NCBI GenBank assembly: GCA_964534375.1
Contig: CAZHPN010000006.1
Location: 2,787 to 66,786 of the forward strand
Source of the DNA: an uncultured bacterium
GTDB lineage: Bacteria; Lernaellota; Lernaellaia; Lernaellales; Lernaellaceae
DNA: 64,000 nucleotides
Direction of reading: 5' to 3'
The position numbers and the translations under genes are program-made. Positions 46,244 through 63,008 of this stretch are shown one piece after another. Within the stretch, counting starts at the first letter, position 1, and the number at the start of each line of letters is the position of its first letter. The notes beneath the pieces are model-generated. The model saw only the letters and a program-made list of their open reading frames with translations, had not been told where the DNA came from and made no database searches.

Positions 46244-46483
46244 ACTTCACCTCGCGAAAGGTCAAACTTTCTCGTGAATTCTATAAGACAAGATCGTGCG
46301 GTTCGCAACGGGGCATCGGATCATTGGACGCCGAGGGCCTCAACCGGGTTCAAGCAAATTTAACGAAAAACGCGCCCGGCGCAACTGCGTCGACGACAGC
46401 GCGCCGCCCGGCGCCCGCCTTCCGGCCGGAGCGCCCGCGGCGCCAAGTCGGCCTTGGTTTGTCAGGATCGTGGAACGGCGGCT

Positions 46484-47443
46484 TCAACCGCCGCAACCGC
46501 CGCCGCGGGAATTGCCGTTGCGGTGTGCGGCCGGCGCCGCATCGTCATCGGCCGCGTCGTCGTTGTCGTCGTTGTCGTCGTCATTATCGTCATTATCGTC
46601 ATTATCGTCGTCGTCGTCGTTATCATCATCGTTGTCGTCGTCATTGTCGTCATCGTCGTCGTCGTCATTGTCGTCATCATCGTCGTCCAACGTATCGATC
46701 CCTTCCAGCCGGAAGGCGACCGCCGTTTCGGAAATGCCATAAACCGTGGAAATGTCGGCCCATTGGGCCGGAATCGCCGGCGACGCGCCGCCGCCCGGGT
46801 TCGCCACCATGCCATGATCGTAGTGCGAGGTCTCGGACACCCAAATGCCGACGACGCCGTCCGCCAGAGTCGTAACCGGATAGCAGGAAAGCCAATAATG
46901 ACCTGGCGAGAAGACGGGGGGCGAGACTGGCATTGCCCAGAAATCCGCCTCGTAGACGCTATCGGACAACGTGACGCGCGGATCGGTCGGGGTCCACGAT
47001 TCCGACCACAACGCCGGCGCCTCGTCGTAGATCGGCATGCCGCTCGGTTTCCCGCCCTCGTCGGGAAAGACAAAACAAGTGAGGGCCGAGGCGCTTTGAA
47101 GCCCCTGCCAACCGGCGCCGGGTTCGCCGCACCATTCGATCTGCTGCACGGTCCAGACATGGCCGGCGGGCACGACGAAGTCGTCCGCCGCGAACGTGTC
47201 CAGGGCGCTGTGGGCGGCGTCGAAAACCTGCCCGGCGTACGGTTTGTAATTGATCTGGCTGCCATCTTGCTCGATCAGGCTGGGGAAATACGGCGGCGCG
47301 GCCGGACTCGAGGCCGCCGAAGCGCGCGTCAACAAACCAACGCCTGCCCACCCGCCCGCGACTGCCACTATCGCGGCAATCGCGAGCGCCGCGAATCGTT
47401 CCTTCCGATCGGACACTTTTGCCGCTCCTTCCGCTGAAGCCAC
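46484..47443 (-). CDS. Secreted hypothetical protein with a C-terminal poly-Asp/Asn tract and a terminal ...GGGCGG
   Basis: Signal-peptide-like N-terminus (AALAIAAIVAVAGGWAGVGLLTRASAAS). A beta-rich domain of unknown family. The last 60 aa are (D/N)n followed by AAPAAHRNGNSRGGGCGG-stop. Confidence 0.5.
   Translation of the reverse strand: MASAEGAAKVSDRKERFAALAIAAIVAVAGGWAGVGLLTRASAASSPAAPPYFPSLIEQDGSQINYKPYAGQVFDAAHSALDTFAADDFVVPAGHVWTVQQIEWCGEPGAGWQGLQSASALTCFVFPDEGGKPSGMPIYDEAPALWSESWTPTDPRVTLSDSVYEADFWAMPVSPPVFSPGHYWLSCYPVTTLADGVVGIWVSETSHYDHGMVANPGGGASPAIPAQWADISTVYGISETAVAFRLEGIDTLDDDDDDNDDDDDDDNDDDNDDDNDDDDDNDDNDDNDDDNDDNDDAADDDAAPAAHRNGNSRGGGCGG
46541..46688. repeat. Imperfect (GAC/GAT/AAC)n trinucleotide tract encoding poly-Asp/Asn
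   Basis: About 150 bp of gtcgtc/gttgtc/attatc units on the plus strand, inside the 46484..47443 gene. Confidence 0.9.
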
Positions 47444-47567
47444 AATCCTTCGGGCCGCCCCTCTCGCCCAGCGGCCGCCCCATGGCGAACGTAATCACGG
47501 CGCGCCGCGCACGCTATCGGCCGGCCCCTGAGCCGGCGCGCTGGCGGCGAAGCGATCGGCGATGCGG

Positions 47568-49049
47568 CTACGTCGAGCCGGCGAGCGCGGGGCAGCCCCC
47601 GAACCGATAGATGCGGTAGCGGCCCACGCGCGCGGTCTCGCGGAAGCGCTCCGGGTGGCGGGCGATTAACCGGGTCAAAGCCTGGGCGTGGTCGTCGTCC
47701 TCGCCGGACCATACGCCGCGCCCGTCGATGGCGAATTTGACGCTGTCGCGACAAAAGAGTTCCAATTCCGATTCCTTGCCGGCCACCGCAAACGACAACG
47801 ACCGGCGGCGGCTGAACAAGGCCAGCGCGCGCGCGCGGTAGAACACGAGCGTGTCGCGCGGGGCCGCGTTGGCGCTCGCCCACGCGAACAATTGCTGGGT
47901 GTCGGGCGTGTCGATGCCGTCGCGCACCGGGCCGTAGTTCGCCGTGGCGAAAAAGACGCCGTCGCTGACGATGGCCGCGACCGCCAGCAGGGCGACGGCG
48001 CGGGCCGGCGTCAGCGCCTTGAGCCGCACGGCCATCTCGTTGAGCCCCAGCAGCAAGTAAAACAAGTAGAGCGGCAGCAACGGCAGCAGCAGCCGCAGCC
48101 CTTGGAAGGAGGGCCAAAGCAAGACGATCGCCAGATAGCCGGCGAAGAAGGTCTCGAGAACCGACCGCTTGCGCCAGAGGCGGGCGGCGAAGCCGATCGC
48201 CGCCGCCAGCATCGTCGCGATGCTGAGCGCCTGCCCGATCCGATGCGGGAACCCGGCAAAAAGCACTTCTTTAATGAAGGGCGGATAATTGCGCAGGTTC
48301 TCGAAAATGCACTGCGGATAGTGGTGCAGCTGGTCGCCGTAGCCCGGGCCGCCGCTGAGCAGCGCCGATTCGGCGGCGTACAAACCGTACGCGACGACCG
48401 TCGCCGCCACGGCGAATAGCGAAATCCGGCGCAGGCGTAGGACGTCGGCCGCCAACAGGCTCAGCGGCAGGACGACGCCGATCGTCCGCGTCGCCACGGC
48501 GGCGAACATCAACAGACCGGCGGCGGCGCCGTAAAGCAGATCGCGCCGCCGCGATCCAACCGCGGCCTGGCCCGCGACCACCGCCGCCAAGGCAAGCCCC
48601 GTCCACAACAAGAATGGAATGTCGGACCGAATCGGATTCCCTTCGTCGAACCACACCGGGCTGAAGCCGAGCAGCGCGAGCCACGTCAGCCGCTGCCAGA
48701 GCGGCAACTCGTCCCGCGACAAGCGAAAAAACGCGGCCAAGGCGCCAATCAGCAGCAGATTGACGAAGATTTGCATCGCGCGAAAATTCAAGCCGAAAAG
48801 TGCGATCACCGGGGCGAGCAGCGCCGGGAATCCGGGCGGATACGCCGACGGCCCCATCTCCGGAAAACCCGGATTGTAAACGTAACCGGTGTCCGTGGTG
48901 GGCCGATGTTCGGCGAGCGCCCGGGCCTGCGCAATGTACTGCGCAAAGTCGTCGTCCCACGTCAAACCCGGCCGCAAACACAGCAAACGGAACGCAAAAG
49001 TAGCGCCAAGCGCGGCGAGAAAAATCGTCCGGCGATTCCGCGAAAGCAA
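47568..49049 (-). CDS. Polytopic membrane glycosyltransferase-like protein (GT-C fold, ArnT/PMT/DUF2142-like)
   Basis: 493 aa. About 11 TM helices, with a cytoplasm-exposed DxD-like segment near the N-terminus (TWDDDFAQY). No closer assignment is possible by eye. Confidence 0.45.
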   Translation of the reverse strand: MLSRNRRTIFLAALGATFAFRLLCLRPGLTWDDDFAQYIAQARALAEHRPTTDTGYVYNPGFPEMGPSAYPPGFPALLAPVIALFGLNFRAMQIFVNLLLIGALAAFFRLSRDELPLWQRLTWLALLGFSPVWFDEGNPIRSDIPFLLWTGLALAAVVAGQAAVGSRRRDLLYGAAAGLLMFAAVATRTIGVVLPLSLLAADVLRLRRISLFAVAATVVAYGLYAAESALLSGGPGYGDQLHHYPQCIFENLRNYPPFIKEVLFAGFPHRIGQALSIATMLAAAIGFAARLWRKRSVLETFFAGYLAIVLLWPSFQGLRLLLPLLPLYLFYLLLGLNEMAVRLKALTPARAVALLAVAAIVSDGVFFATANYGPVRDGIDTPDTQQLFAWASANAAPRDTLVFYRARALALFSRRRSLSFAVAGKESELELFCRDSVKFAIDGRGVWSGEDDDHAQALTRLIARHPERFRETARVGRYRIYRFGGCPALAGST

Positions 49050-49295
49050 ACTTCCCTCCGGGTTGCAAGATCGAATACATAATAATCAGACGACGCCCGA
49101 GGGAAAGCGCCAAATGCCAAAATTTCCGCCGCTGGCCGCCGGAAAAAAAGACGAAAGCCAGTCCGTCGCCGCATGGTCGCGCACGGCAAAGCCTTCCTTG
49201 ACTTTTGACCGGCGGCAACCTTATGATAACATCGGTTGGACGGTGGATGCACGGTCGTTCGCGGCGGGCGGCGTAGAAAGAGAAAGGAGTTTGAG

Positions 49296-50579
<1,284 letters not shown>

Positions 50580-50604
50580 GCCAATCCGTTCGCCAGCGAA
50601 CAAA

Positions 50605-50633
50605 GGCGCCCCGCTCTTCGGGGCGCTTTTTTT
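50605..50633 (+). terminator. Rho-independent terminator
   Basis: GGCGCCCCG-ctctt-CGGGGCGC followed by TTTTTTT, immediately after the stop of the FGE-domain gene. Confidence 0.8.
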
Positions 50634-50725
50634 GTGCGGCGTCGGGCGCAGGCGCGCGACGCGATTGGACAAAGTCGCGGTTTTTTGCGAAGCTGGCGCC
50701 GAACGATTTTTCGAAGGAGCGCATC

Positions 50726-53116
50726 ATGGGCTTCGGTCGGCTGTGGGTTTTGGCGGTGGCGTTGGCGCTCGCGGTTGCCTTCTTGCCGGCTTGCGGCGGC
50801 AAAAGCAGCGACGACGATTCCACCGCGGACGACGACAACGATGCGTCGCCGCTCGACGACGACGACAATGATAACGACAACGACGATCTGTCGCCTGACG
50901 ACGACGCCTCGCCCGTCGATGACGACTCCTCGCCCGTCGGCATTCTGGATTACGTCAACCCGTTCATCGGCTCGGGCGGCATCGGCTACCAGTACGCGGC
51001 GGCGTATCCGGGGGCCAAGTATCCGCACGGCATGATCACAATGAACCCGAACACGACCCGGAACGGCTTCAATTGGGATAAACAGGAATTTTGCGGCTAC
51101 AATTGGGGAGATCCGCAAATCCGCGGTTTCGTCCACACCGAACTTTACGGCACGGGGGCGGCCGGCGAAGGCAGCCTGTTGATCATGCCGATGAAAAGCA
51201 AACCCAACGGCCTGATCGAGGAACCGACCTTCCGCAGCAGCTTCGACAAGAGCACCGAGACCGCGACGCCCGGCTACTACTCGGCCTACCTCGAAGACGC
51301 GCAGACGTTGGTTGAGTTGGCCGCCGCGCCGGCGAGCGGCATCGAACGCTTCACGTTCGCCGCGGGCGCATCGCCGTACATTATCGTTTGGCCGTCGTAC
51401 TCCCAGGACTCCGGCTGGATCACCGATTCGGAAGTCGACATCGGCCCTGGTCAAACGATTTCGGGCTGGATCAATTACGGCGGCCCCATGAGGGGCCGTT
51501 CGACCCGCGGTTCCGCCTCCGGCTACACCGTTTACTATTACCTCGTTTTCTCGCAGCCCTTCACGGATACGGAAGTCTGGACGTACGGCGGAGAGGGAGA
51601 GCCGGGCACTTCGATGCACGCGGCGGACGCCGGCGCCTTCGTCGGCTTCGCCCCGAGCGCGGAACCGTTGGTCATGCAAGTCGGCATCAGTTCGCAGAGC
51701 GTGGCGCAAGCGCAGGCCAACCTCGCCGCGCAGATCCCGGTCGCCGATTTCGACACAGTGCACGCCGCGACCCGCGCCGCGTGGGAAAACGCCTTGAGCG
51801 AAATCGAAGTGGTCGGCGGCACGGACACGCTCCGGCGCGAGTTCTACACGGCGCTCTATCACCAGCACATGATGCCCACCGACTGGACCGAGGCCAACAA
51901 CCAGTATTTCGGCTTCGACCGGCAGGCGCATGACGCGGGCGCGCGTCGCTATTACACCGACATGTCGCTGTGGGACATCTTCCGCACGCAGTTTCCGTTT
52001 TACGTGCTGCTCGAACCGGTGCGCGCCGCCGACATCGCGCAATCGCTGACCGACATGTACAACCAGGTCGGTTACCTGCCGCGCTGGCCGGCGGCGTGCT
52101 ATGACACGGGCTCGATGATCGAAACGCCGACCGACATCATCTTCAGCGACGCGTACCTCAAAGGCGTGCAGAATTTCGATTACCAGACCGCCTATCAGGC
52201 CTGCTATGCGCACGCCACCGGAAATACGCCCGGCCCCGGCCGTGAATGCCTGACCCAGTACATGACGCTGCATTACCTGCCCGAGGACCAATGCGGCGCG
52301 GGCGTCAGCCACATCACCGAAGCGTGCCGCGAAGACGCCGCCCTCTCGCATTGGGCCGCTGCCATGGGCAACACGACCGACGCGGCGATGTTCCTGGCGC
52401 GCAGCACTTACTATCAGAACCACTTCGACGCTTCGACCGGCTTCTTGCGCGCCAAGGATTCGGACGGTTCGTGGGTCGCTCCGTTTCTGCCGGCGTACCC
52501 GTTCGACAACAACTACGTCGAGGGCGACGCCTGGCAATACACTTTCTGCGCCGAGCACGACGCCGACGGCCTGACGGCGCTGTTCGGCTCGCCAGCGGCG
52601 GCGGCCTCCAAGTTGGAGCAGGACTTCCAGGAATCCGTCGACAACCCGCCGGGATTAGTGCTGCCGTCCGGCTACTACTGGGCCGGCAACGAACCGGACA
52701 TTTTCTACGCGTTCTTCTTCGATCTGATGGGCCGCCCCGATTTGACACAGAAATGGACGCGCTGGATCGTCGCCACGAAATACGGCGACGGACCCGCCGG
52801 CCTGCCGGGCAACGACGATGGGGGCACGATTTCGGCGTGGCTGCTTTGGGCCGCGATTGGCTTTTACCCGGTGAACGGGAGCGACGTCTACCTGCTCGGC
52901 AGCCCGCTCTTCGATCAGGTAACAATGCACCTGCCGGGCGGCGATCTGATCGTGATCGCGCACAACAACACCCCGGAAAACAAGTACGTCCAATCGGCCA
53001 CGCTGAACGGCGCGCCGCTCACCGCCCCCCAGTTCACGCACGCGCAGATCGTCAACGGCGCGACGATCGAGATGGTAATGGGGCCGCAACCCGCGGCGGG
53101 GTCGTTTGCAAAATAA
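50726..53116 (+). CDS. Lipoprotein glycoside hydrolase family 92 (alpha-mannosidase-like) with an N-terminal poly-Asp/Asn linker
   Basis: Lipobox FLPACGG, then SSDDDSTADDDNDASPLDDDDNDNDNDD... GH92-like catalytic region including NYVEGDAWQYTF and WAGNEPDIFYAFFF. 796 aa. Confidence 0.75.
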   Translation: MGFGRLWVLAVALALAVAFLPACGGKSSDDDSTADDDNDASPLDDDDNDNDNDDLSPDDDASPVDDDSSPVGILDYVNPFIGSGGIGYQYAAAYPGAKYPHGMITMNPNTTRNGFNWDKQEFCGYNWGDPQIRGFVHTELYGTGAAGEGSLLIMPMKSKPNGLIEEPTFRSSFDKSTETATPGYYSAYLEDAQTLVELAAAPASGIERFTFAAGASPYIIVWPSYSQDSGWITDSEVDIGPGQTISGWINYGGPMRGRSTRGSASGYTVYYYLVFSQPFTDTEVWTYGGEGEPGTSMHAADAGAFVGFAPSAEPLVMQVGISSQSVAQAQANLAAQIPVADFDTVHAATRAAWENALSEIEVVGGTDTLRREFYTALYHQHMMPTDWTEANNQYFGFDRQAHDAGARRYYTDMSLWDIFRTQFPFYVLLEPVRAADIAQSLTDMYNQVGYLPRWPAACYDTGSMIETPTDIIFSDAYLKGVQNFDYQTAYQACYAHATGNTPGPGRECLTQYMTLHYLPEDQCGAGVSHITEACREDAALSHWAAAMGNTTDAAMFLARSTYYQNHFDASTGFLRAKDSDGSWVAPFLPAYPFDNNYVEGDAWQYTFCAEHDADGLTALFGSPAAAASKLEQDFQESVDNPPGLVLPSGYYWAGNEPDIFYAFFFDLMGRPDLTQKWTRWIVATKYGDGPAGLPGNDDGGTISAWLLWAAIGFYPVNGSDVYLLGSPLFDQVTMHLPGGDLIVIAHNNTPENKYVQSATLNGAPLTAPQFTHAQIVNGATIEMVMGPQPAAGSFAK

Positions 53117-53349
53117 CTTTGAGTTGGTCGACGCCGCGTCCGAAAGATCTGGTATCTAAAACGCTTTTTTCGAACGCTCAAGATTGGGGCTTGCTTTCTT
53201 CAAGAAATTGGCGTAGAGAGATTGCGTTGCGCTTCCGGCGAACCGCCGTTTTCGCCGGGCGAGCGACGTGGATTAACGTGTTTTGACAGGGGGAAGGAAT
53301 GTTATTTGGACGCCGCAGGGAGCGACGAACGGGTCAAAAGCCGGCGAAG

Positions 53350-53547
53350 ATGATGGCGTGCCCGGTCTGCAAAGGCGGCAGCGTCGTGCGCATGACGCCG
53401 ACGGAAGCCACCACGTGGAACGAGCGCATCGGCGAGAAGAACGTCGCCGCCATCGAATCGGTGACGCGGCCGTGCTGGGCTTGCGATGGCCACGGCCAGA
53501 TGCCGATCGAGCGACGCCGGGCTGAGATCGGTCACTTCGATCGCTGA
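53350..53547 (+). CDS. Small zinc-ribbon protein (CPxC...CxxC)
   Basis: MMACPVCKGGSVV...RPCWACDGHG. Short and weakly supported. Confidence 0.3.
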   Translation: MMACPVCKGGSVVRMTPTEATTWNERIGEKNVAAIESVTRPCWACDGHGQMPIERRRAEIGHFDR

Positions 53548-53588
53548 AAAAAATTTCGCTTCCGCCAAGATAGTTCGCCGCCGCCGGA

Positions 53589-54482
53589 TTAATGCGCAGG
53601 GTGTTTGCGCAAGAACTCGAGCATATACTCGTTGACCTGTTCGGGTTGCTCTTGTTGCACCCAGTGCGAGCAATCGGCGATCCGCCGCAATTCGAACGGG
53701 GCGTCGATCTCCTGCTCCAAGCCGTCGCAAAGTTCTGGGCCGAGGGCGCGGTCCTTCTCCGCCCAGATCACCTGCGTCGGAACCTTAATCTTCGGGAAAC
53801 CTGCGGCTTCGTTCGACGTCGCCAGCCGGCGCAGCGAAGCGCGATAGTAGTTGATGGCGGCTGTCAACGCCCCCGGCGCCAGCATGGGTTCGCGAAAGCC
53901 GGCGATGACGTCGTCCGAAAACATTTCTTTCCGGAACGCCCACCCGCGAAACATTCGGTCGAATTGATTTTTCGCATCTCGCAAAATATGACGCTCCGGC
54001 AACCAGGGAAGCTGAAAATAAAACATGTACCACGAACGACGCAGTTGGCGGAGATTGCCGAACAAGTGGCGCCGGAAGATTTTCGGATGCGGGGCGTTGA
54101 GAATCGTCAGCGAGAGCAGGTCCTGGGGCCGCCGGGCCGCGTAGAACCAGGCGATCGCGCCTCCCCAGTCGTGGGCGATCAGATGCACCGGCCCGCCGCC
54201 GAGCGCCGCGATCAGTCCTTGCACATCGCCGGCAAGCCGATGCATGCGGTAATCGACAACCCGCGCCGGCCGGTCGGTGAGGTTGTAGCCGCGCAGGTCC
54301 GGGGCCGCCGCGCGAAAGCCGGCCGCCGCCAACGCCGGCAATTGATGCCGCCACGATCGCCAGTTTTCCGGAAAGCCGTGCAGCAACAACGCCACCGGTC
54401 CCGAACCCTGCGTCGCGACGTGAAACCGCAAACCGTTGGCGAAAAGAAACTCCTCGGTCAAGCCGGGCTGCGCATCCGACAT
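53589..54482 (-). CDS. Alpha/beta hydrolase (epoxide hydrolase / haloalkane dehalogenase-like)
   Basis: HGFPENWRSWRHQ, nucleophile elbow AHDWGG, C-terminal catalytic His (CSHWVQQEQP). Confidence 0.8.
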   Translation of the reverse strand: MSDAQPGLTEEFLFANGLRFHVATQGSGPVALLLHGFPENWRSWRHQLPALAAAGFRAAAPDLRGYNLTDRPARVVDYRMHRLAGDVQGLIAALGGGPVHLIAHDWGGAIAWFYAARRPQDLLSLTILNAPHPKIFRRHLFGNLRQLRRSWYMFYFQLPWLPERHILRDAKNQFDRMFRGWAFRKEMFSDDVIAGFREPMLAPGALTAAINYYRASLRRLATSNEAAGFPKIKVPTQVIWAEKDRALGPELCDGLEQEIDAPFELRRIADCSHWVQQEQPEQVNEYMLEFLRKHPAH

Positions 54483-54558
54483 GGCGTCCTCCCGACGTTG
54501 AAGGCGCGATGCTGTTTCTTCGAATGTAGCGATCGATGCGGACGCGGAACAGATGCGG

Positions 54559-55116
54559 CTAAAACTTCGCCCCGATGCAGGCCATCATGCCTTTGTGCGG
54601 CGTCGGAACGAGGCGGAGTATCGGCGCAACCTTATATTTCTGGATGACGTACTGCTCGTAGTCTTTTTCCGCCTGGCTTTTGGCGCCGGTGAAATAAATC
54701 CCCACGCCCACCAGCGGCAGGCCGCCGGCGACGCCGGCGACCAACAGAATGTCGCCGACTTTCTGGTTGTACAAACCGATCGCGGTCTGGAATAGACCCC
54801 CGATGAAACCGACGGCGACCATCACCGCGCCCGGGATAAACGTGGCCATCCCGATCGCCTTGCGCCGATTCCGTGCGGCCATCGCGAGGTTGTACATCCG
54901 CCACAGTTCCATGTCGTTGTCCATCGCCTGACGCGTTTCATCGTCGTATTGCCAAATAACCGGACCCTTGTGTTGGGCCAGCAACGTCCCCAGCGTGGCG
55001 CTGTCCACCGCGGGCGCGGCTCCGTCATCCGTCGTCGGCTCGGCGGCCGACGCCGACGCCGCAAAGCACAGCAAACAGCCCGCGAGCACCCAAAGAATGA
55101 CGCTACGTAAACTCAT
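54559..55116 (-). CDS. Hypothetical signal-peptide / membrane protein
   Basis: N-terminal signal (ILWVLAGCLLCFAASASA), two central hydrophobic helices. No recognisable family. Confidence 0.4.
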   Translation of the reverse strand: MSLRSVILWVLAGCLLCFAASASAAEPTTDDGAAPAVDSATLGTLLAQHKGPVIWQYDDETRQAMDNDMELWRMYNLAMAARNRRKAIGMATFIPGAVMVAVGFIGGLFQTAIGLYNQKVGDILLVAGVAGGLPLVGVGIYFTGAKSQAEKDYEQYVIQKYKVAPILRLVPTPHKGMMACIGAKF

Positions 55117-55151
55117 CTTGCTCTCCCTATCCGGGGCCGCGGCCGCCGGCT

Positions 55152-57278
55152 TTACGCGATGGTGAAATTATACACGTTTTCGAAACGGTCGCCCGGCGAT
55201 TCCATCGTCAGCCGGGCCGAGTACAGCCCCGGCCGCTCCGGCGATTCGTCGATCGACAGGCAATGCGCCGCCCGGCAATCGGGTTCGAGTCGTACGGCGG
55301 CCCGGTGCTCGCCGATGATGCCATTTTCGGCGTCAAGGATCGTCAGCGTCAGCGTCGCGACGCCGAGATCGTCGGGCGTGTCGTTGACCGCAAAGGCGTC
55401 GATGCGGATCGGTCGGCCGCCACGGGTCCGCCGGTCGGCGCTCAGCGTGAGGAACGCGTACACCGGGCGAAACGCGTCGCGCAAGGCGAAGTAGCTTCGC
55501 TTCGGGACTCGCCAGTAATCGAGCACAGACCATTGGATCGCGGGGTTCGGATCGGTGAACATGAACTGGACGACGCCGCCGTTGGGCGCGTATTTGGCGC
55601 GGCGGGCGCGGTCGATGTAGAAGCGATTCATCTCGCTCTGGTACGCTTGGCTCTTTTCAACGAGCGTCGCCAGATCGGGCTGCGCCGTCCCGACCCAGTG
55701 ATCCATCAGTTCTTTTTGCAGGCTGTGCCGCGCGGTCAATCGGGGCCAGTCGATTTGGCGGATGTCTTCGGCCATGAATTTGGCGCAGCTAACCAGATTG
55801 GGGAAACTCTGCGCGCCGAATTCGGTGATGAACCGCAGGTTTTTCGGAAAGAGCCGGCAGACCTTGTCGAAGAGGAACATCGACTTGCCCTGCACGCGGT
55901 ACCACCCGAAATAGAAGTGCGTGTCCGTGCCTTCCTGCCAGGGCGCCGCCGGTTCGCCGCTGCATTTGTTGACAAAACGCGACGAATCGACGGCCTCGGC
56001 CGCGCGCTTCAGGGCCGCATCGAGCACGACGCGATTCCAGTTCCAAACGAAAATCGTGAACATCGTCTTGGCGTTTTCGAGCGCGGTTTCGTCGGCCGTA
56101 TCGACAAGATGGATCGGTTCGTTGTGGCACGTCCAGTAGGCGATCGACGGATGATTGAACAGCAGCAGGACCATCCCTTGCATCATCCGCTCGGCCGCGG
56201 GCAAGACCTCCCGGCGGTAGCTCCATTGCATCGGAAAATCCTGCGCCAGCAGCAGGCCGGCGCGATCCGCGGCGCGATACAGGGCCGGATGATCGACATG
56301 CGCATGAACGCGCAGGATGTTCATGTTGGCCTCGATTGCGAGGCGCACGTCGCGCTCGGCGTCGGCATCGGTCACGGTTGCAATCCGCGTGTCCGTCGGC
56401 GGTTGGTTGCTGCCGCGCAGGTACAGCCGGCGGCCGTTGAGCCGGCAGATCCAATCTTCAAAGCGGATCGTTCGCACGCCGACGAGATCCTCGAATGCGT
56501 CGCTGACCTTCTTGCCTTCCCGCAGCGTCGCCGTGAAGCGATAGAGGTTCGGCTGGCCGCGATCGTGCGTCCACCACAGCGCCGGCCGCACCAGGTGATG
56601 GGAAAAGGCGAGCTTGTTGCGCCCTTCGTCGAGTTCGACGTCGCGCGAAAATTCGTACGCCTCGCCCGTAAAGTTTTCGGGCGCCAGCGCGATCTCGCAC
56701 CGCACGCGGCCGGCGCGGCGGGCGATGATCTCCAGCCGGACGGTGATCGAGGCGTCGTCGCCTTCGAGTTCGTCGGTCTGAAAAAGGCAGGCGTCGAGCT
56801 GAAACGCGCCGGTCGTGTGAATCTCCGGCGCGAGCCAGATGCCGCCGGGGTTGGTGGTCGGGTCCAGGCAGTCCCAGTGCGAGAACACGCCGGTGATCAT
56901 GCGTTTGGCGTTGCGCTCTTTTTCATTGGGGCAATTGACCTCGATCGCCAACTCGTTCTCCGGCTCCAGCAGGTCGGTCACGTCGTAACGTTGCGGCGTG
57001 AAATAACCTTCGTGGTCGCCGAGTCGGCGGCCATTCAAGACGACGGTGGAATAATAGAATATCCCCGGAAAAACGAGATGGGTCCGTTCGCCCTTTTCCG
57101 GTTTGAACGAAAATCGCCGGCGGTAGTGAACGACGCCCGCGTGATCCCGCAGCGCCGGGTGCTGCTGCCAATGGCTGGGAATTTCCATCTCCAGCCAATT
57201 TTCCACGGCCTCGGGACGCACGTCGCCCGTGGCAACCGCCGCCAACTCCCACGTCCCCCCTAGTTCCGCGGCTTTCAT
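55152..57278 (-). CDS. Glycoside hydrolase family 2 (beta-mannosidase / beta-galactosidase-like), cytoplasmic
   Basis: 708 aa. GH2 sugar-binding, Ig-like and TIM-barrel order, catalytic-region WTCHNEP and FITEFG. No signal peptide. Confidence 0.7.
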   Translation of the reverse strand: MKAAELGGTWELAAVATGDVRPEAVENWLEMEIPSHWQQHPALRDHAGVVHYRRRFSFKPEKGERTHLVFPGIFYYSTVVLNGRRLGDHEGYFTPQRYDVTDLLEPENELAIEVNCPNEKERNAKRMITGVFSHWDCLDPTTNPGGIWLAPEIHTTGAFQLDACLFQTDELEGDDASITVRLEIIARRAGRVRCEIALAPENFTGEAYEFSRDVELDEGRNKLAFSHHLVRPALWWTHDRGQPNLYRFTATLREGKKVSDAFEDLVGVRTIRFEDWICRLNGRRLYLRGSNQPPTDTRIATVTDADAERDVRLAIEANMNILRVHAHVDHPALYRAADRAGLLLAQDFPMQWSYRREVLPAAERMMQGMVLLLFNHPSIAYWTCHNEPIHLVDTADETALENAKTMFTIFVWNWNRVVLDAALKRAAEAVDSSRFVNKCSGEPAAPWQEGTDTHFYFGWYRVQGKSMFLFDKVCRLFPKNLRFITEFGAQSFPNLVSCAKFMAEDIRQIDWPRLTARHSLQKELMDHWVGTAQPDLATLVEKSQAYQSEMNRFYIDRARRAKYAPNGGVVQFMFTDPNPAIQWSVLDYWRVPKRSYFALRDAFRPVYAFLTLSADRRTRGGRPIRIDAFAVNDTPDDLGVATLTLTILDAENGIIGEHRAAVRLEPDCRAAHCLSIDESPERPGLYSARLTMESPGDRFENVYNFTIA

Positions 57279-57397
57279 GAGGCTCCTCGTCGGGCAATTG
57301 TTTTGGCGCGCCCAGGAGACTAAACAGGCCGCGGCCGGGTGTCAACGCCGCGCCGTCCCCGACACGCGGCGCGCGCTCCCGAAAGCAGCGAAAATCA

Positions 57398-57427
57398 TTG
57401 ACATTTGCCTCTCGTTCGTATTATAAA
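57398..57427 (+). promoter_or_regulatory. Near-consensus sigma70 promoter (TTGACA ... TATTAT/TATAAA)
   Basis: TTGACAtttgcctctcgttcgTATTATAAA. The ORF track reads this promoter as the start of a fake ORF (MTFASRSYYK). Confidence 0.55.
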
Positions 57428-57550
57428 CCCGGGCGGCGATCCGGGGGTGCGGGCGCCGAGAGGCAACGGTATGCGTTCGTGGTAAGTTGGCGCCGCAGGC
57501 GAATTCGAGGGAGTTGGCGACTCGATCGCCCCTCCACGAGGCAAACAGGT

Positions 57551-58066
57551 TTGAGTCACCGCTGGCCGATCGCCGCCCTTGTCGCGCTGCTGCTGTCTGC
57601 GCCGCTGGTTGCGTACGCCGGCTGCAAATGGGATCTGCCGTCGGAAGTTTTCGAATACTTCCACGAAACGTCCGCCAAGGCCGATTGCAACAACTACGAA
57701 TACAAATTCGCCGATCTCAAGGGCGAAAAACCGTATGCCATCATTGTGTCCCAGTACGAACGCTCGTGCGACAACCGGTACTGCGACACCGAAATTTTCG
57801 AAAAACGCGGCTCGACCTGGGTCCATATCGCGACGGTCCCCGGCCGCGTCAAAGTTGTCGAGACGAAAACGAACGGCTACCACGACATCCTGACCCTGCT
57901 GCTAGGCCGGCTTTACCTCTATGTCTGGGATGGAACTACGTATCTCGACATGATCGGCCTCGCCGCGGCCAGCGAACAAATGCTGCTGCTGCAGGGCCCG
58001 AACGCTGCGACGCCTCAGCCGGTCCAGCCGGAACAATCGCCCACACCTAGACCGAACAAGAAATAG
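57551..58066 (+). CDS. Small lipoprotein (hypothetical)
   Basis: TTG start with GAGG SD. Signal plus lipobox PLVAYAGC. A Cys-rich mature part (CKWD...CNNYEY...CDNRYCDTE). Follows a structured leader of about 120 nt. Confidence 0.45.
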   Translation: MSHRWPIAALVALLLSAPLVAYAGCKWDLPSEVFEYFHETSAKADCNNYEYKFADLKGEKPYAIIVSQYERSCDNRYCDTEIFEKRGSTWVHIATVPGRVKVVETKTNGYHDILTLLLGRLYLYVWDGTTYLDMIGLAAASEQMLLLQGPNAATPQPVQPEQSPTPRPNKK

Positions 58067-58089
58067 CCGCCCCGTCGCCCGCGCCGCCG

Positions 58090-59580
58090 TCAGCCCCCGC
58101 AACCGTGGTGGGCCGGCTTGCGGCCTCCGCTCGCATGCGGGGTCAAATCGTCATCGGCGCCGGCGGCGTCGCTATCGTCGTCATTGGCGTTGTTGTCGTC
58201 GTCATCGGGGACGTTGCCCGGGCCGCCGTAATAGAAATTAACGAGCCAGGCGGGATCGCCGGAGTTGTCGTTGATTGCGCCAATGTTCCAGAGGGTGGGG
58301 ATCGTGGCGTCGCCGACCAGCCCGGTATCGTCATTCCAGTTCAGATTTGCGTCGCGATACTTGATCTGGCTCACGAACGCCGCGTACTGATAGCCCGCGT
58401 TTGGAAAACGTCCGCTGCCCATCTGCGTGCTGGTGTGGATCCCGCCGGTCTGATCGTCCACCAGTTCGCCGCCGAATTGCGGGCTGGAGGCTCCGTCGGC
58501 GAGTCCGACCGGGCTGAACAAGCTGTTCGGATAATAGCCGACCGCCTTCCCGCCGACGTACAGCCACCAGTCGCCGGTTCCCGCATCGCGCACCATGCCC
58601 AACGTGACGGCGTATTGCGTTCCGCCGAACGAACTGTAATTGGGCAAGGGGCCGCCGATGACGACGCTGCTGTCCTGCTGGACAAAAATGCCGCCGTCGA
58701 GATTGTAATACCCGGTGTTGTAACCATCTTGCGTCGAAAAAATGAAAAGGTTCGTGTTGTCGTTGCCGTAAATAAGATAACAGTGCTGCAATCCGGTTTC
58801 GGCGCTTTGCAGGTTGCTGCCGGCGCCGTTGACGGCCCACAATTGCACCAGGGTAAACTCGTTGTGCTCCTCCACGTACTGATGCCACAAATTGAAGGTC
58901 GCCTGCAGTCCCGTGTGCACGGTGTTGTAATCCGCGGCGACCGTGTATTGGTGCGGCGGACCGCTCGACTCCGGCGCCAGATCGTCAGGGCGCTTCTTGA
59001 ATATGTCTTGCAACGTCCGGAAACGATAGTAGGTCTCCACCGGACGGATCAACTTCGGAAATGAGCCCGCCGGGCACTCCCGCACGGCGCCGTCTTCATC
59101 AAGCGAAGAATCCAAGCCCGAGTCGCGCACCGGAATCGGCCCGTTGCCGCCGCCGATTGCCGTGTCGGGGGCGGCTTCTGGCGGCGGCGGTAGGACGTTC
59201 GGATCCCCGCCGGCAACGACCAACGCGCGCTGGCTGTTGACGGCGACGCAAACAATCTGCTCGCCATCGCGCAATTTGAATCTGTGCACGGCCTCGCCGT
59301 CGGCGACGAACGCGCGGCGCCAAGCGTTGATTTTGATGAATTCCTCGACTGACTGTACGGCAAAATCGGGCATCGTTGCGCGGGCGGCCTCGTAACGTTG
59401 ACGCCACTCGTCGCGGTCCGCCGTGGTCAAGGCGGCGGCGACATCGCCGGCGTAAAGGCCCTGCGCCCAGGCGGCGCTCGCCGCGGCGACGATGAAGATC
59501 GCGATGGCGCCCATGGCGCCGTTTCGCAACTGACGGCCGAACTTCGCCACGATGCCTCCGAACCACCGGAAAATAGTCAT
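58090..59580 (-). CDS. Neprosin / DUF239-family (glutamic peptidase G3-like) secreted protein with a C-terminal poly-Asp/Asn tract ending ...HHGCGG
   Basis: Signal peptide (MGAIAIFIVAAASAAWA). Neprosin-domain conservation (QYTVAADYNTVHTGLQATFNLW, LVQLWAVNGAGSNLQSAETGLQHCYLIYGNDNTNLFIFSTQDGYNTG, WWLYVGGKAVGYYP). C-terminus PDDDDNNANDDDSDAAGADDDLTPHASGGRKPAHHGCGG-stop. Only 4 nt after the stop of the Cys-rich repeat gene. Confidence 0.7.
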   Translation of the reverse strand: MTIFRWFGGIVAKFGRQLRNGAMGAIAIFIVAAASAAWAQGLYAGDVAAALTTADRDEWRQRYEAARATMPDFAVQSVEEFIKINAWRRAFVADGEAVHRFKLRDGEQIVCVAVNSQRALVVAGGDPNVLPPPPEAAPDTAIGGGNGPIPVRDSGLDSSLDEDGAVRECPAGSFPKLIRPVETYYRFRTLQDIFKKRPDDLAPESSGPPHQYTVAADYNTVHTGLQATFNLWHQYVEEHNEFTLVQLWAVNGAGSNLQSAETGLQHCYLIYGNDNTNLFIFSTQDGYNTGYYNLDGGIFVQQDSSVVIGGPLPNYSSFGGTQYAVTLGMVRDAGTGDWWLYVGGKAVGYYPNSLFSPVGLADGASSPQFGGELVDDQTGGIHTSTQMGSGRFPNAGYQYAAFVSQIKYRDANLNWNDDTGLVGDATIPTLWNIGAINDNSGDPAWLVNFYYGGPGNVPDDDDNNANDDDSDAAGADDDLTPHASGGRKPAHHGCGG

Positions 59581-59591
59581 CGGCGTCCGGC

Positions 59592-61871
59592 CTAGCAACC
59601 GCAGCCCGTCCTGCCGTCGCTGCCACTGACGGAGCGCGGGTGGGGCGGCGAGACGTCGTCATCGGCCTGCGACGTGTCGTCATCGTCGTTGTCATCGTCA
59701 TCGTCGGTCGTGTCGTTGTCGTCATCGTCATCGTCGTCGGTCGTGTCGTTGTCGTCATCGTCATCGTCATCGTCGTCGTCGGTCGTGTCGTTGTCGTTGT
59801 CGTTGTCGTTGTCGTCATCGTCATCGTCGTTGTCGTTGTCGTTGTCGTCGTCGTTGTCGTTGTCGTCGTCGTTGTCATCGTCGTCGTCGTTGTCATCGTC
59901 ATTGTCGTTGTTGTCGTTGTCGTCGTCGTTATCGTCGTCGTCAACGCCGGGCACGCATTGGCCGCCTTGGCAGTGGTCGCCCGAGACGCAGGCGCTGCAT
60001 TCGCCCCCGCCCGAGCCGCAGTTGTCATCGGCGTTGCCGCCCCAACATTGATTGCTGGCGCAGCAGCCGTTCGGGCAGGCCTGCGGATTGCAAACGCAGG
60101 CGCCGCTCAGGCACTCGGTCCCCGCGGCGCAAGTCACGCATGCCGCCCCGTTGGCGCCGCACGCGGCGACCGTGTCGCCTGCGACACACTGCGTGCCGCT
60201 GCAGCAGCCGGTTTGGCAGTCGGTGGAATCGCAATACCCAACACACTCCCCGCCGACGCAATGATTGCCCGCGCTGCAGGCGGTGCATGCGCCGCCGGCC
60301 GTGCCGCACGCGCTGTCGGCGTCGCCGGTGGCGCATTGATTGGTTTGGCAGCAGCCGCTCGGGCAGGCTTGCGGATCGCAAGTGCACTGGTTGTTGACGC
60401 ATTCGGTTCCGGTGGCGCATGGCGCGCACGCCGCTCCCCCTGCGCCGCACGCGTCGTTCGCGGTTCCCCCGAGGCAGGTCGCGCCGCCGCAGCAGCCGTT
60501 CGAGCAGTCGGTCGAATCGCAATACGGCGTGCACTGATTCGCGGTGCAATGATTGCCGGCGACGCACGCGACGCACACGACGCCGCCCGTGCCGCACGCG
60601 CCGTCGACGTCGCCGGCCTGGCACTGGTTGTTGGCGCAGCAGCCGGCCGTGCACGAACCGGCATCGCAAACGCAAGCGCCGTTGACGCACTCCGTTCCCG
60701 CAGCGCACGTCGCGCAGGCTGCGCCGTCGACGCCGCACGCGCCGTTGTCGTTGCCCCCGAGGCATTGCGCACCGCTGCAGCAGCCGGTCTGGCAATCGGT
60801 GGAATCGCAATACGCGACGCATTGTCCATTCGTGCATTGCGTGCCCGCCGTGCAAGCGACGCACGACTCGCCGGAACCGCCGCACGCCGCTTCGGAGGCG
60901 CCGTCTTGGCAGGTGTCCGAGCCGTCGCAGCAGCCCGACGGACAGGTGAGCGGATCGCAGGCCGGCAGGCACGCGCCGGCTGCGCATTGCTGATATTGGT
61001 CGCACGCGACGCACGCCGCGCCGCCGGCGCCGCAGTAAGCGCTCGTGTTGCCGGTCATGCAGGACGTGCCGTTGCAGCAGCCGGAGGCGCAATCCTGGGC
61101 GTTGCAGTACGCGGCGCATTGGCCTCCCTGACAGTGCGTGCCGGCGCGGCAGGCGATGCAGGCTGCGCCCGACGCGCCGCAAGCGCCGTCGGCCGTTCCC
61201 GTCAAACATTCCGTGCCGCTGCAGCAGCCGGTTTGGCAATCGGTGGCGTCGCAATAGGCCACGCAGGCTTGGTTCAGGCACTTGTAGCCCGTCCCGCAAA
61301 CGGCGCAGGCCGCCCCGCCCGTCCCGCACGCGTTGTTTGCGGTTCCCGCCTCGCACGCCGTGCCGCTGCAGCAGCCGGTCGCACAATCCTGGGAACTGCA
61401 GTACGGCGCGCATTGCTGGTTGACGCAAATCTGTCCGTTCGCGGCGCAATTCTGGCAGGTCTGGCCGCCGGCGCCGCACTGCGAATCGCCCGTTCCCGGC
61501 GAGCATTCGTTGCCGACCGTGCAGCAGCCAGTGGTGCAATAATCGATGCATTCTTCGCCGCCGCTGCACTCCCCGCCGACGCAGGTTTCGCCGTAGTCGA
61601 GGCAGTTCTCGCAGTAGCCGCCGCCCATGCCGCAGGCGGTGTCGGAATTCCCGGGCATGCACGTGCTGCCGCTGCAACAGCCGTAGCACGTGCCGCAGCT
61701 TCTCGTCCCGTCCGCGTCGTAGTCGAGCGCGCGGTCTGGCGCGGAGATTGCCGGCGCGGACGAGCGGCCGGCGCTTCGCTTCGCGGGCTCGCTAAAACAG
61801 GAAATCCATAGCGCGGGGAGCAACACGACAACGATCATCAGCCAGGATGCGGCGGGCGGACTTTTCTTCAC
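59592..61871 (-). CDS. Secreted Cys-rich tandem-repeat protein (about 15 repeats of roughly 38 aa) with a poly-Asp/Asn C-terminal tract of about 100 aa ending ...TGCGC
   Basis: Signal peptide MKKSPPAASWLMIVVVLLPALWIS. Repeat unit similar to C-x2-YCx3-DC-x2-GCC-x-G-x2-C-x2-G-x4-ACG-x2-G-x2-C-x2-C-x2-G-x2-C-x2-G-x-C. Then VDDDDNDDDNDNNDND...DDDVSPPHPRSVSGSDGRTGCGC-stop (TAG). Confidence 0.7.
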   Translation of the reverse strand: MKKSPPAASWLMIVVVLLPALWISCFSEPAKRSAGRSSAPAISAPDRALDYDADGTRSCGTCYGCCSGSTCMPGNSDTACGMGGGYCENCLDYGETCVGGECSGGEECIDYCTTGCCTVGNECSPGTGDSQCGAGGQTCQNCAANGQICVNQQCAPYCSSQDCATGCCSGTACEAGTANNACGTGGAACAVCGTGYKCLNQACVAYCDATDCQTGCCSGTECLTGTADGACGASGAACIACRAGTHCQGGQCAAYCNAQDCASGCCNGTSCMTGNTSAYCGAGGAACVACDQYQQCAAGACLPACDPLTCPSGCCDGSDTCQDGASEAACGGSGESCVACTAGTQCTNGQCVAYCDSTDCQTGCCSGAQCLGGNDNGACGVDGAACATCAAGTECVNGACVCDAGSCTAGCCANNQCQAGDVDGACGTGGVVCVACVAGNHCTANQCTPYCDSTDCSNGCCGGATCLGGTANDACGAGGAACAPCATGTECVNNQCTCDPQACPSGCCQTNQCATGDADSACGTAGGACTACSAGNHCVGGECVGYCDSTDCQTGCCSGTQCVAGDTVAACGANGAACVTCAAGTECLSGACVCNPQACPNGCCASNQCWGGNADDNCGSGGGECSACVSGDHCQGGQCVPGVDDDDNDDDNDNNDNDDDNDDDDDNDDDNDNDDDNDNDNDDDDDDNDNDNDNDTTDDDDDDDDDDNDTTDDDDDDDNDTTDDDDDNDDDDTSQADDDVSPPHPRSVSGSDGRTGCGC
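59650..59945. repeat. Long imperfect (GAC/AAC/GAT)n trinucleotide tract (about 300 bp) encoding poly-Asp/Asn
   Basis: Plus strand gtcgtcatcgtc/gttgtcgtt... units throughout. Similar tracts at 49403-49722, 50806-50940 and 58141-58210. Confidence 0.9.
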
Positions 61872-61902: not shown

Positions 61903-62210
61903 TCATGTTGCCGGCGGCTTCCCCACGCTCTTCAGGGCGCGATTCAGATAGGCGAGTTTTTGCGCGTCGTCGGCGGCGTCAAATTGGCCTTTGCAAACGG
62001 GGCACATAAAACCGATGCGCCAACCTCTGAAATCGGAAAAAAACGTCGGCGCTTCCGGCTTGCCGGCGACGGGTTTGCCGGAGACCGGGCAAATGGAATT
62101 GGCGACCAACGCCGGCTTTGACTCGTCGCCGGCGGCGATCGACGACGTAATCGCCGACGCGCCAAAGAGAATAGCGCCGGCGACCAGCAGGCAGACAAAC
62201 CGCGTGAACA
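61903..62210 (-). CDS. Small secreted YHS/TRASH-like metal-binding domain protein
   Basis: Real start MFTRFVCLLVAGAILFGASA (signal). ICPVSGKPV...FMCPVCKGQFD resembles YHS-domain CxxC motifs. The track ORF is over-extended upstream. Confidence 0.45.
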
Positions 62211-62219
62211 TTGCATCCC

Positions 62220-63008
62220 CTACCAGAACATGATGGCGAAGCCGCGCTCGGCCAAGCGAAAACCGACGCTGGCGTGGCCGATCCAATTGTTCGCCGCCGC
62301 GGCGATCAACGCAAGCCAGCAGCCGGAAAATACAATCAAGCATGAGAGAATTCGCTCGCGCCACGGCGCGGGACGCGCCGGCGCGAACGTCGGCGCCATG
62401 CCGAACGGGTAGATGACCGCGCTGGTCATCCAGACCTGCAACACCATCAACAAGGCGCCGTGCATCGGGCTTTGCGTGCTGGCGGCGAGCGAAAGCGTCC
62501 AAAGTGTGATCATGCAAGGCATCAGCCCCATCGCCATGCCGAGGAAAAACTTTTGGCGGTAGCCCGGCGTATTTTGCAAACGGTTGGCCAGCCCGCCTAA
62601 CATGCGCCCCCACCAGGGATTCCCGGCGCCCTCGGCCAGTCGCGCGAGGCCCGACAGACGCAACGCGCCATAGGTGATGAGGAACGCGGCGACCAGCAAG
62701 CCGGTGATTTTGACGATCTGCGCGAGGACCGACTGCAGCGCCGCGCCGCCCAGGCCGGCCAATGCGCCCAGGACGGCGTACGTCAGCGAGCGGCCAAGCT
62801 GGTAGCACGTCACAAGCAGCGCCGAACCGAACAGGCGTTTTCGTCGCGGCGTGTTCGAGTTCAAACGTTCGCGAAGGCCGCCGCCGATGTCCAGGCCGAC
62901 CACAATCGGGCCGCACATGCCGGAGCAATGCAAACTGATCCAGACGACGCCGACGCCGAGAAGCTGGGCGTATTGCGGATGCTCGCCGAGGGTGAAGACG
63001 TCATTCAT
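62220..63008 (-). CDS. DsbD_2 / UreH-like (HCxxMCGP) polytopic membrane protein, putative metal transporter
   Basis: 262 aa. Six to seven TM helices with the family-typical HCSGMCGPIV motif in TM1 and a second Cys/Met-rich helix (GLMPCMITLW). Confidence 0.55.
   Translation of the reverse strand: MNDVFTLGEHPQYAQLLGVGVVWISLHCSGMCGPIVVGLDIGGGLRERLNSNTPRRKRLFGSALLVTCYQLGRSLTYAVLGALAGLGGAALQSVLAQIVKITGLLVAAFLITYGALRLSGLARLAEGAGNPWWGRMLGGLANRLQNTPGYRQKFFLGMAMGLMPCMITLWTLSLAASTQSPMHGALLMVLQVWMTSAVIYPFGMAPTFAPARPAPWRERILSCLIVFSGCWLALIAAAANNWIGHASVGFRLAERGFAIMFW

Follow-up and report, generated by a model that had tools for sequence, protein, structure and literature searches.

Why should three unrelated secreted proteins of one bacterium all end in a run of Asp and Asn residues, a Cys and a stop codon? 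The question is raised by a 64-kb window (that is, the whole stretch of DNA that was analysed) of a 147,787-bp JGI metagenome contig from a member of the Lernaellota (FEN-1099). A six-frame scan of this window gives exactly five open reading frames (ORFs) with Asp/Asn (D/N) runs. Three of them, here called proteins 1 to 3, carry the run before a C-terminal Cys, and the other two, lipoproteins with an FGE-sulfatase or a GH92 domain, carry it near the N-terminus. The window is otherwise housekeeping in content. The tail recurs in at least nine genomes, on over 50 proteins from unrelated families, and is a genuine, conserved tag that is typical of the Lernaellota. The sequence evidence tips, though not by much, towards a role of this tag in anchoring proteins to the cell surface by their C-terminus or in sorting them there.

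The name Ca. Lernaellota was given to FEN-1099 by Williams et al. in 2022, who predicted a saccharolytic and proteolytic lifestyle with polymer degradation, in habitats that include anoxic lake water, and did not mention such tails (PMC9324843). The tag is also not described in the literature on Lernaellota/FEN-1099 and on C-terminal Cys lipidation or sorting that was searched in full text, and we regard it as a variant of the Cys-containing C-terminal sorting signals.

The tails of the window proteins

By translation, the three ORFs are as a preliminary description of this DNA had given them, each with a signal sequence, a D/N spacer and a GCGG, GCGG or GCGC end. Protein 1 (46484..47443, minus strand; 319 aa), for which the JGI gene call has the same coordinates, consists of a signal peptide or signal-anchor, an unknown domain, a D/N tether of 52 aa with 39 Asp and 9 Asn (46541..46696, minus strand) and a terminal spacer with the Cys motif, AAPAAHRNGNSRGGGCGG (46487..46540, minus strand). 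Its translated C-terminus is HRNGNSRGGGCGG, with GCGG at 46487-46498 (minus strand) and a TGA stop at 46484-46486. The protein has no Pfam match and a single homologue (P0001) among 5.8 billion proteins, and the AlphaFold2 model of its domain from this two-sequence alignment reached a mean pLDDT of 32, too low for the model to be of use.

Protein 2 (58090..59580, minus strand; 496 aa) begins with a signal peptide (AAWA/QG at the cleavage site), followed by a neprosin-family peptidase domain (PF03080; 2.3e-46, 158.3 bits against a gathering cut-off of 22, profile positions 2-214 of 214). The acidic tether is short, about 20 aa, DDDDNNANDDDSDAAGADDD (58147..58206, minus strand, coordinates set by hand from the translation). 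After it come the spacer and Cys motif, LTPHASGGRKPAHHGCGG (58093..58146, minus strand), which close in KPAHHGCGG, and a TGA stop (58090-58092).

Protein 3 (59592..61871, minus strand) has 759 aa when read from a GTG codon, while the JGI gene call starts at 61838 and gives 748 aa. It combines a signal peptide with Cys-rich repeats, namely 12 tandem repeats of 47-51 aa with 10 Cys each at about aa 56-647 (123 Cys in total), and continues with a D/N tether of 89 aa, 64 Asp and 19 Asn (59676..59942, minus strand). The terminal spacer and Cys motif, TSQADDDVSPPHPRSVSGSDGRTGCGC (59595..59675, minus strand), precede a TAG stop (59592-59594), and the C-terminus, PPHPRSVSGSDGRTGCGC, closes in SDGRTGCGC. 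No Pfam or NCBIfam model matched this protein, and a metagenome scan for its relatives confirmed none.

Is the Cys at these ends a matter of chance? A Cys lies within the last four residues in about 3 of 37 other coding-like ORFs of the window against 3 of 3 D-run tails, and it is not chance. A weak motif, A-D-D-D-x-x-P-x(1-3)-H...G-C-G-x, is common to the three tails.

The two lipoproteins lie on the plus strand between proteins 1 and 2. Pfam identified the FGE-sulfatase domain of the first (49296..50579), which has a signal peptide, a lipobox-like VFGC and a 93-aa D/N tether at 49449-49727, and the GH92 domain of the second (50726..53116), with a signal peptide, a lipobox-like LPAC and a D/N tether at 50810-50905. 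Both lipoboxes can be read from the sequence (LLLAVFGC and AVAFLPAC). The Pro at position -2 of the GH92 lipobox is non-canonical, and it recurs elsewhere in the lineage (LSPAC, L038). The earlier account of a D/N linker in both proteins holds, though its placement directly after the lipobox Cys was slightly generous, as the run starts 14 residues past the Cys in the FGE protein (LAVFGC/GSK) and 6 in the GH92 protein (FLPAC/GGKSSDDD).

Conservation of the tail and selection on the peptide

Related loci of about 355 kb were sampled, and the tail statistics are over 51 tails. In these loci, the poly-Asp runs are bimodal, standing either after a lipobox Cys or before a terminal G-C motif. Of the N-terminal runs, 17 of 18 start directly after the signal peptide and lipobox Cys (as in LVASCGGDDDD, LVISCDDDDDDDDD and FSTACGGGDDDDDD), and these lipoproteins lack the C-terminal tag. 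Every C-terminal D-run listed in Lernaellota-like loci leads to G-C and then to a stop within a few residues. Where the N-terminus of a tagged protein can be identified, the signal peptide is of the AxA type and a canonical lipobox is lacking; protein 3 alone is ambiguous in this respect (LWISC).

The tip itself is closely defined. The distance from Cys to stop is 0-3 residues in all 51 tails, a Cys occupies position -3 in 48 of them and position -1 in 43, and the first terminal Cys is preceded by G in 48, by A in two and by S in one. The consensus of the lineage is G-C-G-C, commonly with the (D)n run abutting it. The window form is an atypical variant, in which some 18-25 residues with Pro, His and Arg/Lys lie between the acidic run and GCG followed by G, C or V; it is also found in a close relative (P0003). 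Tails beyond the reach of the scan pattern given in the next section are Cys-tipped as well, ending in GCGR, GCA (three times), GCGG, GCGV, GGCAI, SSCGD or ECCG, and roughly half of the tails not picked by that pattern have a single Cys (GCGG, GCGV, GCGR, GCA, GGCAI, SSCGD).

The neprosin-like relatives of protein 2 within the lineage retain both the acidic run and the terminal Cys motif. At 57, 48, 47 and 42% identity, they end in AAKSGCGV, DDDDDDEGCCGC (closing in EGCCGC), EEKDECCG and DDDGDSGCGC, respectively, so that these relatives do not have the ordinary C-termini that would have spoken against a tag. A Terriglobales homologue (37%, annotated as partial) lacks both the acidic run and the Cys.

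At the level of DNA, the last five codons and the stop occur in 50 distinct versions among the 51 tails, the stop codons are TGA (30), TAA (12) and TAG (9), and every synonymous codon for Cys (both) and Gly (all four) appears. It is therefore the peptide that is under selection. A conserved DNA element was rejected on the same 50 versions with their synonymous variation, and the blocks common to the three window tails measure only 11 nt and 7 nt. Stop recoding or selenocysteine at TGA was likewise rejected, as TAA and TAG are also used and the read-through frames of the window contain nothing like a transmembrane (TM) helix.

Distribution across genomes

How widely does the tail occur? The pattern GACGAYGAYGAY-N(0-30)-TGYGGNTGYTRR was scanned over 185,579 species genomes, one genome per species, and matched at least 120 loci. 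Among the matches listed, 39 close an ORF in frame with (D)n-[GSA]-(G)-C-(C)-G-C-stop, and all of these come from eight metagenome-assembled genomes (MAGs). Six belong to 'Deltaproteobacteria bacterium FR_14 FR-FEN-1099-1', five to 'HK-STAS-FEN-2' (three of them inside one 8-kb locus) and at most eight to each of the six others. Chance or a wrong reading frame accounts for the approximately 80 remaining matches listed, which come from Actinomycetes, Proteobacteria and other groups. An extreme lineage-specific enrichment of the tag is thus supported by the sequences.

The host assignment is consistent with this distribution. Relatives of the window CarB form a tight group at 76-91% identity, with Ca. 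Lernaella stagnicola at 79%, and those of other phyla reach at most 67%. The order HTH_17-PyrG, CarA, CarB is common to Ca. Lernaella stagnicola and the window at 22-29 kb. In the 23 kb around CarB of Ca. Lernaella stagnicola, a sample that was not picked for tags, a signal-peptide protein ends in DDGMPQGSADGDDGDDGCGG, closing in DDGDDGCGG, and a melibiase lipoprotein starts with LVLACASCGDDDNDDNNDNDD, of the CGDDDNDD type.

Two other searches were less informative. A profile of seven tails against 1.84 billion representative proteins passed only P0003, and such a short low-complexity profile is powerless on distribution. A metagenome DNA pattern for the window-type tail, GCCGATGACGAY...CCG...GGTTGC, gave no real tag among at least 119 matches; it is too unspecific, and the source contig itself is not among the matches listed.

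Cargo and the choice of anchor

The tagged proteins are diverse. The contigs of two neprosin homologues carry further tagged genes of unrelated families. Their products are a papain-family (C1) peptidase with the end DDDDDDDSGCGC, a BNR/PKD protein with DDDDDNGSCGC, a trypsin-like protein with DDDEESSSCGD and one of 270 aa with ADDKSGGCAI. Other cargo includes M14 with PKD, C25 (gingipain- or PorU-like), Kelch, FG-GAP, SBBP, fn3 and DUF2334 domains.

The clearest case of interchange is a lipoprotein with an N-terminal tether (L049:4222-5847), which is homologous over about 440 aa (E 7e-50) to two C-tagged proteins (L110:4522-6138 and L067:964-2553). Homologous cargo uses either the N-terminal lipid anchor or the C-terminal tag, and the two layouts are mutually exclusive.

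When 42 tagged proteins were compared with NCBIfam, no C-terminal sorting model was matched. Models for M36 peptidases labelled 'myxosortase-dependent' (2.8e-22) and 'rhombosortase-dependent' fit one of them, a Leptospira SBBP lipoprotein model fits four, and others match 'choice-of-anchor' or LPXTG-anchored families. Judged by these matches, the cargo spectrum is that of known surface-anchoring systems. An alternative C-terminal Cys tag, one of the two possibilities first raised for these tails, is thereby supported as far as sequence goes, through enrichment, lipobox exclusivity, cargo interchange and cargo families.

DNA beyond the stops and reliability of the sequence

Could the stops hide a longer signal? 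No TM helix or Arg tail follows any of the three stops in any frame, in agreement with the first reading of the downstream DNA. On the 3' side of protein 1 there is a GC-rich terminator-like hairpin with a T-run and then a TonB gene, a convergent gene ends 24 nt past the stop of protein 2, and the start of protein 2 adjoins the stop of protein 3. Among the related loci, too, no GC motif with a TM helix and Arg tail was found in about 355 kb, and relatives with a full-length signal, a possibility considered at the outset, are thus absent from that DNA.

An independent ENA assembly differs from the window contig at 2 positions in 15,860 nt, and the exact sequence of protein 2 with its C-terminus is present in ENA and Logan assemblies (P0002). 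The JGI, ENA and Logan assemblies agree, and therefore the stops are not assembly artefacts, as had been feared of frameshifts.

Comparison with known sorting signals

The MYXO-CTERM signal, with which the tails were compared in the preliminary description, is tripartite, with a signature around an invariant Cys that is generically 'GCGC', a TM helix and a cluster of Arg residues, and a disordered region adjoins the signature (bioRxiv 10.1101/2023.06.07.544157; PMC11980579). In the current model, the Cys is lipidated by a possibly Lgt-like enzyme, the myxosortase MrtX, an Rce1-like intramembrane protease, cuts distal to the Cys, and the type II secretion system (T2SS) brings the protein to the surface; MYXO-CTERM and GlyGly-CTERM proteins are T2SS-dependent and partly released into the medium (PMC11980579). 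The same protease superfamily handles both long (MYXO-CTERM) and short (CAAX) signals (Haft, bioRxiv 10.1101/2023.06.07.544157).

The comparison proved apt, since GCGC is the published signature. In the Lernaellota as well, a Cys signature of the GCGC type stands near the C-terminus of Sec-exported proteins after a disordered region, each genome has dozens of substrates with unrelated domains, and the cargo overlaps (the M36 peptidase, Cys-rich-repeat proteins). Moreover, the mature end that the MYXO-CTERM model places at or near the lipidated Cys is what the Lernaellota ORFs encode directly. However, two of the three defining parts are missing, as the stop comes 0-2 residues past the motif with no TM helix and no Arg cluster. 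The linker before the motif is extreme poly-Asp, and the host belongs to the Lernaellota, not the Myxococcota (79% CarB identity with Ca. Lernaella stagnicola, and synteny). The hidden Markov models (HMMs) TIGR03901.2 and TIGR03382 matched neither the window proteins, nor the isolated tails, nor the 42 tagged proteins. A control consisting of PKD and GCGC with a synthetic TM helix and RRRR scored 26.7 bits against a cut-off of 20, and therefore the failure of the tails reflects the missing TM and Arg parts. The Lernaellota tail is, then, not a member of MYXO-CTERM. It resembles the end-product of that pathway and, by analogy, may work like it; on our reading of the sequences it would be related or analogous to the GCGC signature, minus the TM helix.

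Other signals share single features with the tail. As in the lipoprotein lipobox, a small residue (G, A, S) stands directly before the key Cys, and lipoproteins of the Lernaellota have the same poly-Asp tether. The tail, however, is a mirrored arrangement at the other end of the protein and has no h-region, so that canonical recognition by Lgt is not expected. The acidic stretch beside the Cys also recalls the negatively charged lipoprotein export signal of the Bacteroidota.

Eukaryotic CaaX boxes and the CC, CXC and CCXX motifs of Rab proteins have a Cys 1-4 residues from the free C-terminus, after a flexible hypervariable linker and without a TM helix, with trimming by Rce1. The Lernaellota tails have a free C-terminal Cys after a linker, too, with CXC and CC variants (GCGC, GCCGC, ECCG), but their Cys is mostly at -3 and not at -4, followed by G, C or A and then by C, G or another residue, and aliphatic residues are lacking; they are not CaaX boxes. 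Eukaryotic prenylation motifs are, further, cytosolic and served by soluble prenyltransferases, whereas the tagged proteins are exported via Sec.

Like the GlyGly- (rhombosortase), PEP- (exosortase), PGF- (archaeosortase), JDVT-, Synerg- and CGP-CTERM signals, several of which have an invariant Cys, the tail is short and marks many exported proteins of one lineage that are otherwise unrelated. All of those tripartite signals have a TM helix and a basic cluster, unlike the tail, and none was matched in NCBIfam. The 2026 NCBIfam entry NF058595, 'lipo-invert putative C-terminal anchoring domain', suggests by its name the idea of an inverted-lipoprotein C-terminal anchor, and such an anchor may be in the course of definition by the curators. 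It was found in 1 of 42 tagged proteins at 15-21 bits against a cut-off of 37, the match covers only a PKD-like core (profile positions 71-98), and neither the match nor its score was raised by adding or removing GCGC tails. No paper mentioning NF058595 was found in the searched literature.

A possible mechanism and its weak points

What might the tail do? The layout is a Sec signal peptide, then any functional domain, then a disordered poly-Asp tether with Asn or Thr, then a small residue with the Cys motif, and then the stop. The tag would be a mirror image of the lipoprotein N-terminus, with the thiol of the terminal Cys as the covalent attachment point. S-lipidation would be the most economical guess, because of the symmetry with lipoproteins and the MYXO-CTERM model. 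Processing of the CaaX or MYXO-CTERM kind may remove the 0-2 residues that follow the Cys, and the poly-Asp may serve as an extended spacer, or as a determinant of surface export like the lipoprotein export signal of the Bacteroidota.

A more specific pathway without any membrane-spanning signal can be put forward tentatively, as a possibility that we hold to be on the doubtful side. Here, a soluble, Sec-exported protein with a poly-Asp-G-C-G-C end would be joined through its Cys thiol by an extracytoplasmic enzyme, either by S-lipidation (a diacylglyceryl or polyprenyl group) or by a link to an envelope component. If true, this would be a periplasmic bacterial counterpart of CaaX/CXC lipidation, a true 'inverted lipoprotein', and the TM helix of MYXO-CTERM-type signals would be dispensable for modification of the Cys.

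Several points weigh against surface anchoring or sorting. With no TM helix, it is not obvious how Lgt or another membrane enzyme would reach the Cys, and anionic membranes should repel a poly-Asp tail. No gene of the CPBP/Rce1-like, rhomboid or sortase-like kinds was seen adjoining the tagged ones. Ten multi-TM neighbours that were checked, among them a CreD-like protein, PMT_2-like GT-C proteins, UbiA, MatE and MgtE, include no member of the CPBP family. Housekeeping sorting enzymes are usually unlinked to their many substrates (Haft, bioRxiv 10.1101/2023.06.07.544157). The 51 C-terminal D-run ORFs with a terminal Cys are faced by one real exception, P0001, the homologue of protein 1, which ends in GNGNRHNADH without a Cys. 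Its TGA stop lies 22 nt from the contig end and in-frame D-rich codons run on past the stop (L003:1770-1814), so that this end could be a truncated assembly, a pseudogene or a genuine exception. Two further Cys-less D-run ORFs (L040 and L088) are probable alternative-frame artefacts. Protein 1 and P0001 may also keep an uncleaved N-terminal anchor, in which case a second anchor would be redundant. Finally, shared orthologues are the basis on which six of the eight tag-rich MAGs are assigned to the phylum.

Alternative explanations

The tail may instead be functional without being an anchor, serving to bind metals, minerals or particle surfaces, as a redox-active CXC, or in disulfide cross-linking of secreted proteins or a matrix. 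CGC and CCGC can chelate metals or form small disulfide rings, and poly-Asp binds Ca and Fe minerals. Many tails do end in CGC or CCGC, the habitat includes anoxic lake water and the lineage is a predicted polymer degrader, and some cargo is very rich in Cys (protein 3, with a DsbD_2-family gene adjoining). However, the CXC is not needed, as shown by the single-Cys tails that make up about half of those outside the scan pattern, and this explanation leaves unaccounted for the exclusivity with the N-terminal lipid anchor, the swapping of cargo, and the strict G-C with its placement at -3. We consider it unlikely, though deserving of attention.

Alternatively, the tail could be a secretion or targeting signal only: an outer-membrane system would read the free C-terminus, for instance through a PDZ-type domain, and the tail would perhaps be clipped and the protein released. 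C-terminus-binding domains do recognise free short motifs after flexible linkers. The cargo is that of a typical secretome, with hydrolases and adhesin-like beta-propellers, and the T2SS dependence and partial release of MYXO-CTERM and GlyGly-CTERM proteins offer a precedent. Such a signal would, however, explain neither the same tether at lipoprotein N-termini nor the need for a Cys, and no secretion-system genes are linked to the tagged genes in the sampled loci; it appears improbable. Both this and the binding or cross-linking function explain the lipobox exclusivity less well than a surface anchor does.

A decayed or truncated MYXO-CTERM, or an assembly or frameshift error masking a TM helix and Arg tail, might be suggested by GCGC/GCGG ends that match the MYXO-CTERM signature, by the NCBI labels 'Deltaproteobacteria' or 'Myxococcales' on some related MAGs and by GAC repeats of low complexity that are hard to assemble, but it is rejected as very improbable, against a tail kept at 42-57% identity, on over 50 proteins and with three stop codons always 0-3 residues past the Cys, against three agreeing assemblies, against 355 kb with no TM and Arg tail, and against the negative outcome with an HMM that detects the synthetic control.

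Neighbouring genes and other observations

Directly upstream of protein 3 on the same strand, at 61903-63008 (minus strand), the window encodes a membrane protein of the DsbD_2 family and an exported protein of 102 aa in which CP..C/CPVC motifs occur. One repeat unit of the protein 3 type was seen in P0006, between a neprosin domain and the acidic run. The layout of protein 3, with signal peptide, Cys-rich repeats, linker and GCGC, presumably resembles that of the stalk of the myxobacterial TraA.

Two neprosin homologues and an unrelated trypsin-like protein have in common a Cys-rich module of about 70 aa (29-31% identity; L005:8853-10592, L004:10001-11698 and L004:17293-18483), which is placed between the first poly-Asp run and the final short acidic run with the Cys tail. 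At L092:6790-7650, a 'cargo-less' ORF with the tag only has essentially nothing between its signal peptide and SGGGCGC but some 200 residues of poly-Asp.

Upstream of protein 1, at a distance of 124 bp and on the same strand, lies a 493-aa multi-pass membrane protein (47568-49049, minus strand) with no Pfam, NCBIfam or PDB match and with an early 'TWDDDF' loop that has a GT-C-like look. It was considered as a conserved partner of protein 1 and rejected, as the gene upstream of P0001 is unrelated and the PDB contains no relative. Near tagged genes in two other Lernaellota-like loci, there are likewise weak PMT_2 (GT-C) matches and a single UbiA prenyltransferase (L067:6037-7662, L058:5892-8000 and L067:4884-6110). 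These membrane neighbours could hint at glycosylation of acidic linkers that contain Thr and Asn, or could be a coincidence. N-glycosylation sequons (D-x-N-x-S/T) number two in protein 3, two in the FGE lipoprotein and none in the other three D/N proteins. A CreD-like inner-membrane protein (463 aa) is kept beside orthologous C-tagged M14 carboxypeptidases in two MAGs (L104:4632-6020 and L017:2316-3704).

FGE-sulfatase-domain proteins, with weak GldK/PorK-like matches, occur within a few kb of C-tagged genes at three loci (window 49296-50579, L005:10835-11938 and L110:1653-2546), and in the window and at L110 they are poly-Asp lipoproteins. Although Cys is the residue on which FGE enzymes act, the tails have no CxPxR motif, and the proximity may simply reflect the abundance of the family. 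A third poly-D/N lipoprotein of the same genome (L127:17469-18770, about 6 kb before the window start; VVLAGCSGANAS...DDDDNDDDNDNDTT) has a domain with no Pfam match.

The GAC/GAT/AAC repeats open long poly-Val/Ile, poly-Ser and poly-Thr frames in antisense or shifted register (46454-47437, plus strand; 49338-49925, minus strand; 59640-61811, plus strand). Such spurious frames look like TM helices or proteins of low complexity and could deceive gene callers and TM predictors. Elsewhere in the window, a CTP synthase carries an N-terminal HTH_17 in a single ORF (27403-29304, minus strand), and the fusion is kept in Ca. Lernaella stagnicola (L247:6931-8829), along with the gene order PyrG-CarA-CarB.

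Implications

To our knowledge, the well-characterised prokaryotic C-terminal sorting signals (LPXTG, PEP-, PGF-, GlyGly- and MYXO-CTERM) are all tripartite, with a motif, a TM helix and a basic cluster, and the TM helix is thought to hold the sorting motif at the membrane for processing. A phylum-wide tag reduced to the Cys motif would mean either anchoring through Cys without a helix, by an enzyme that is new or put to new use, or a surface role of the C-terminal Cys that has gone unrecognised. It bears, too, on the question of what modifies the invariant Cys of MYXO-CTERM. The D(n)-GCGC end is a very short candidate tag for surface display. Current HMM libraries miss the Lernaellota tag, and its recognition would alter the annotation of the secretomes of these predicted polysaccharide and protein degraders of anoxic habitats.

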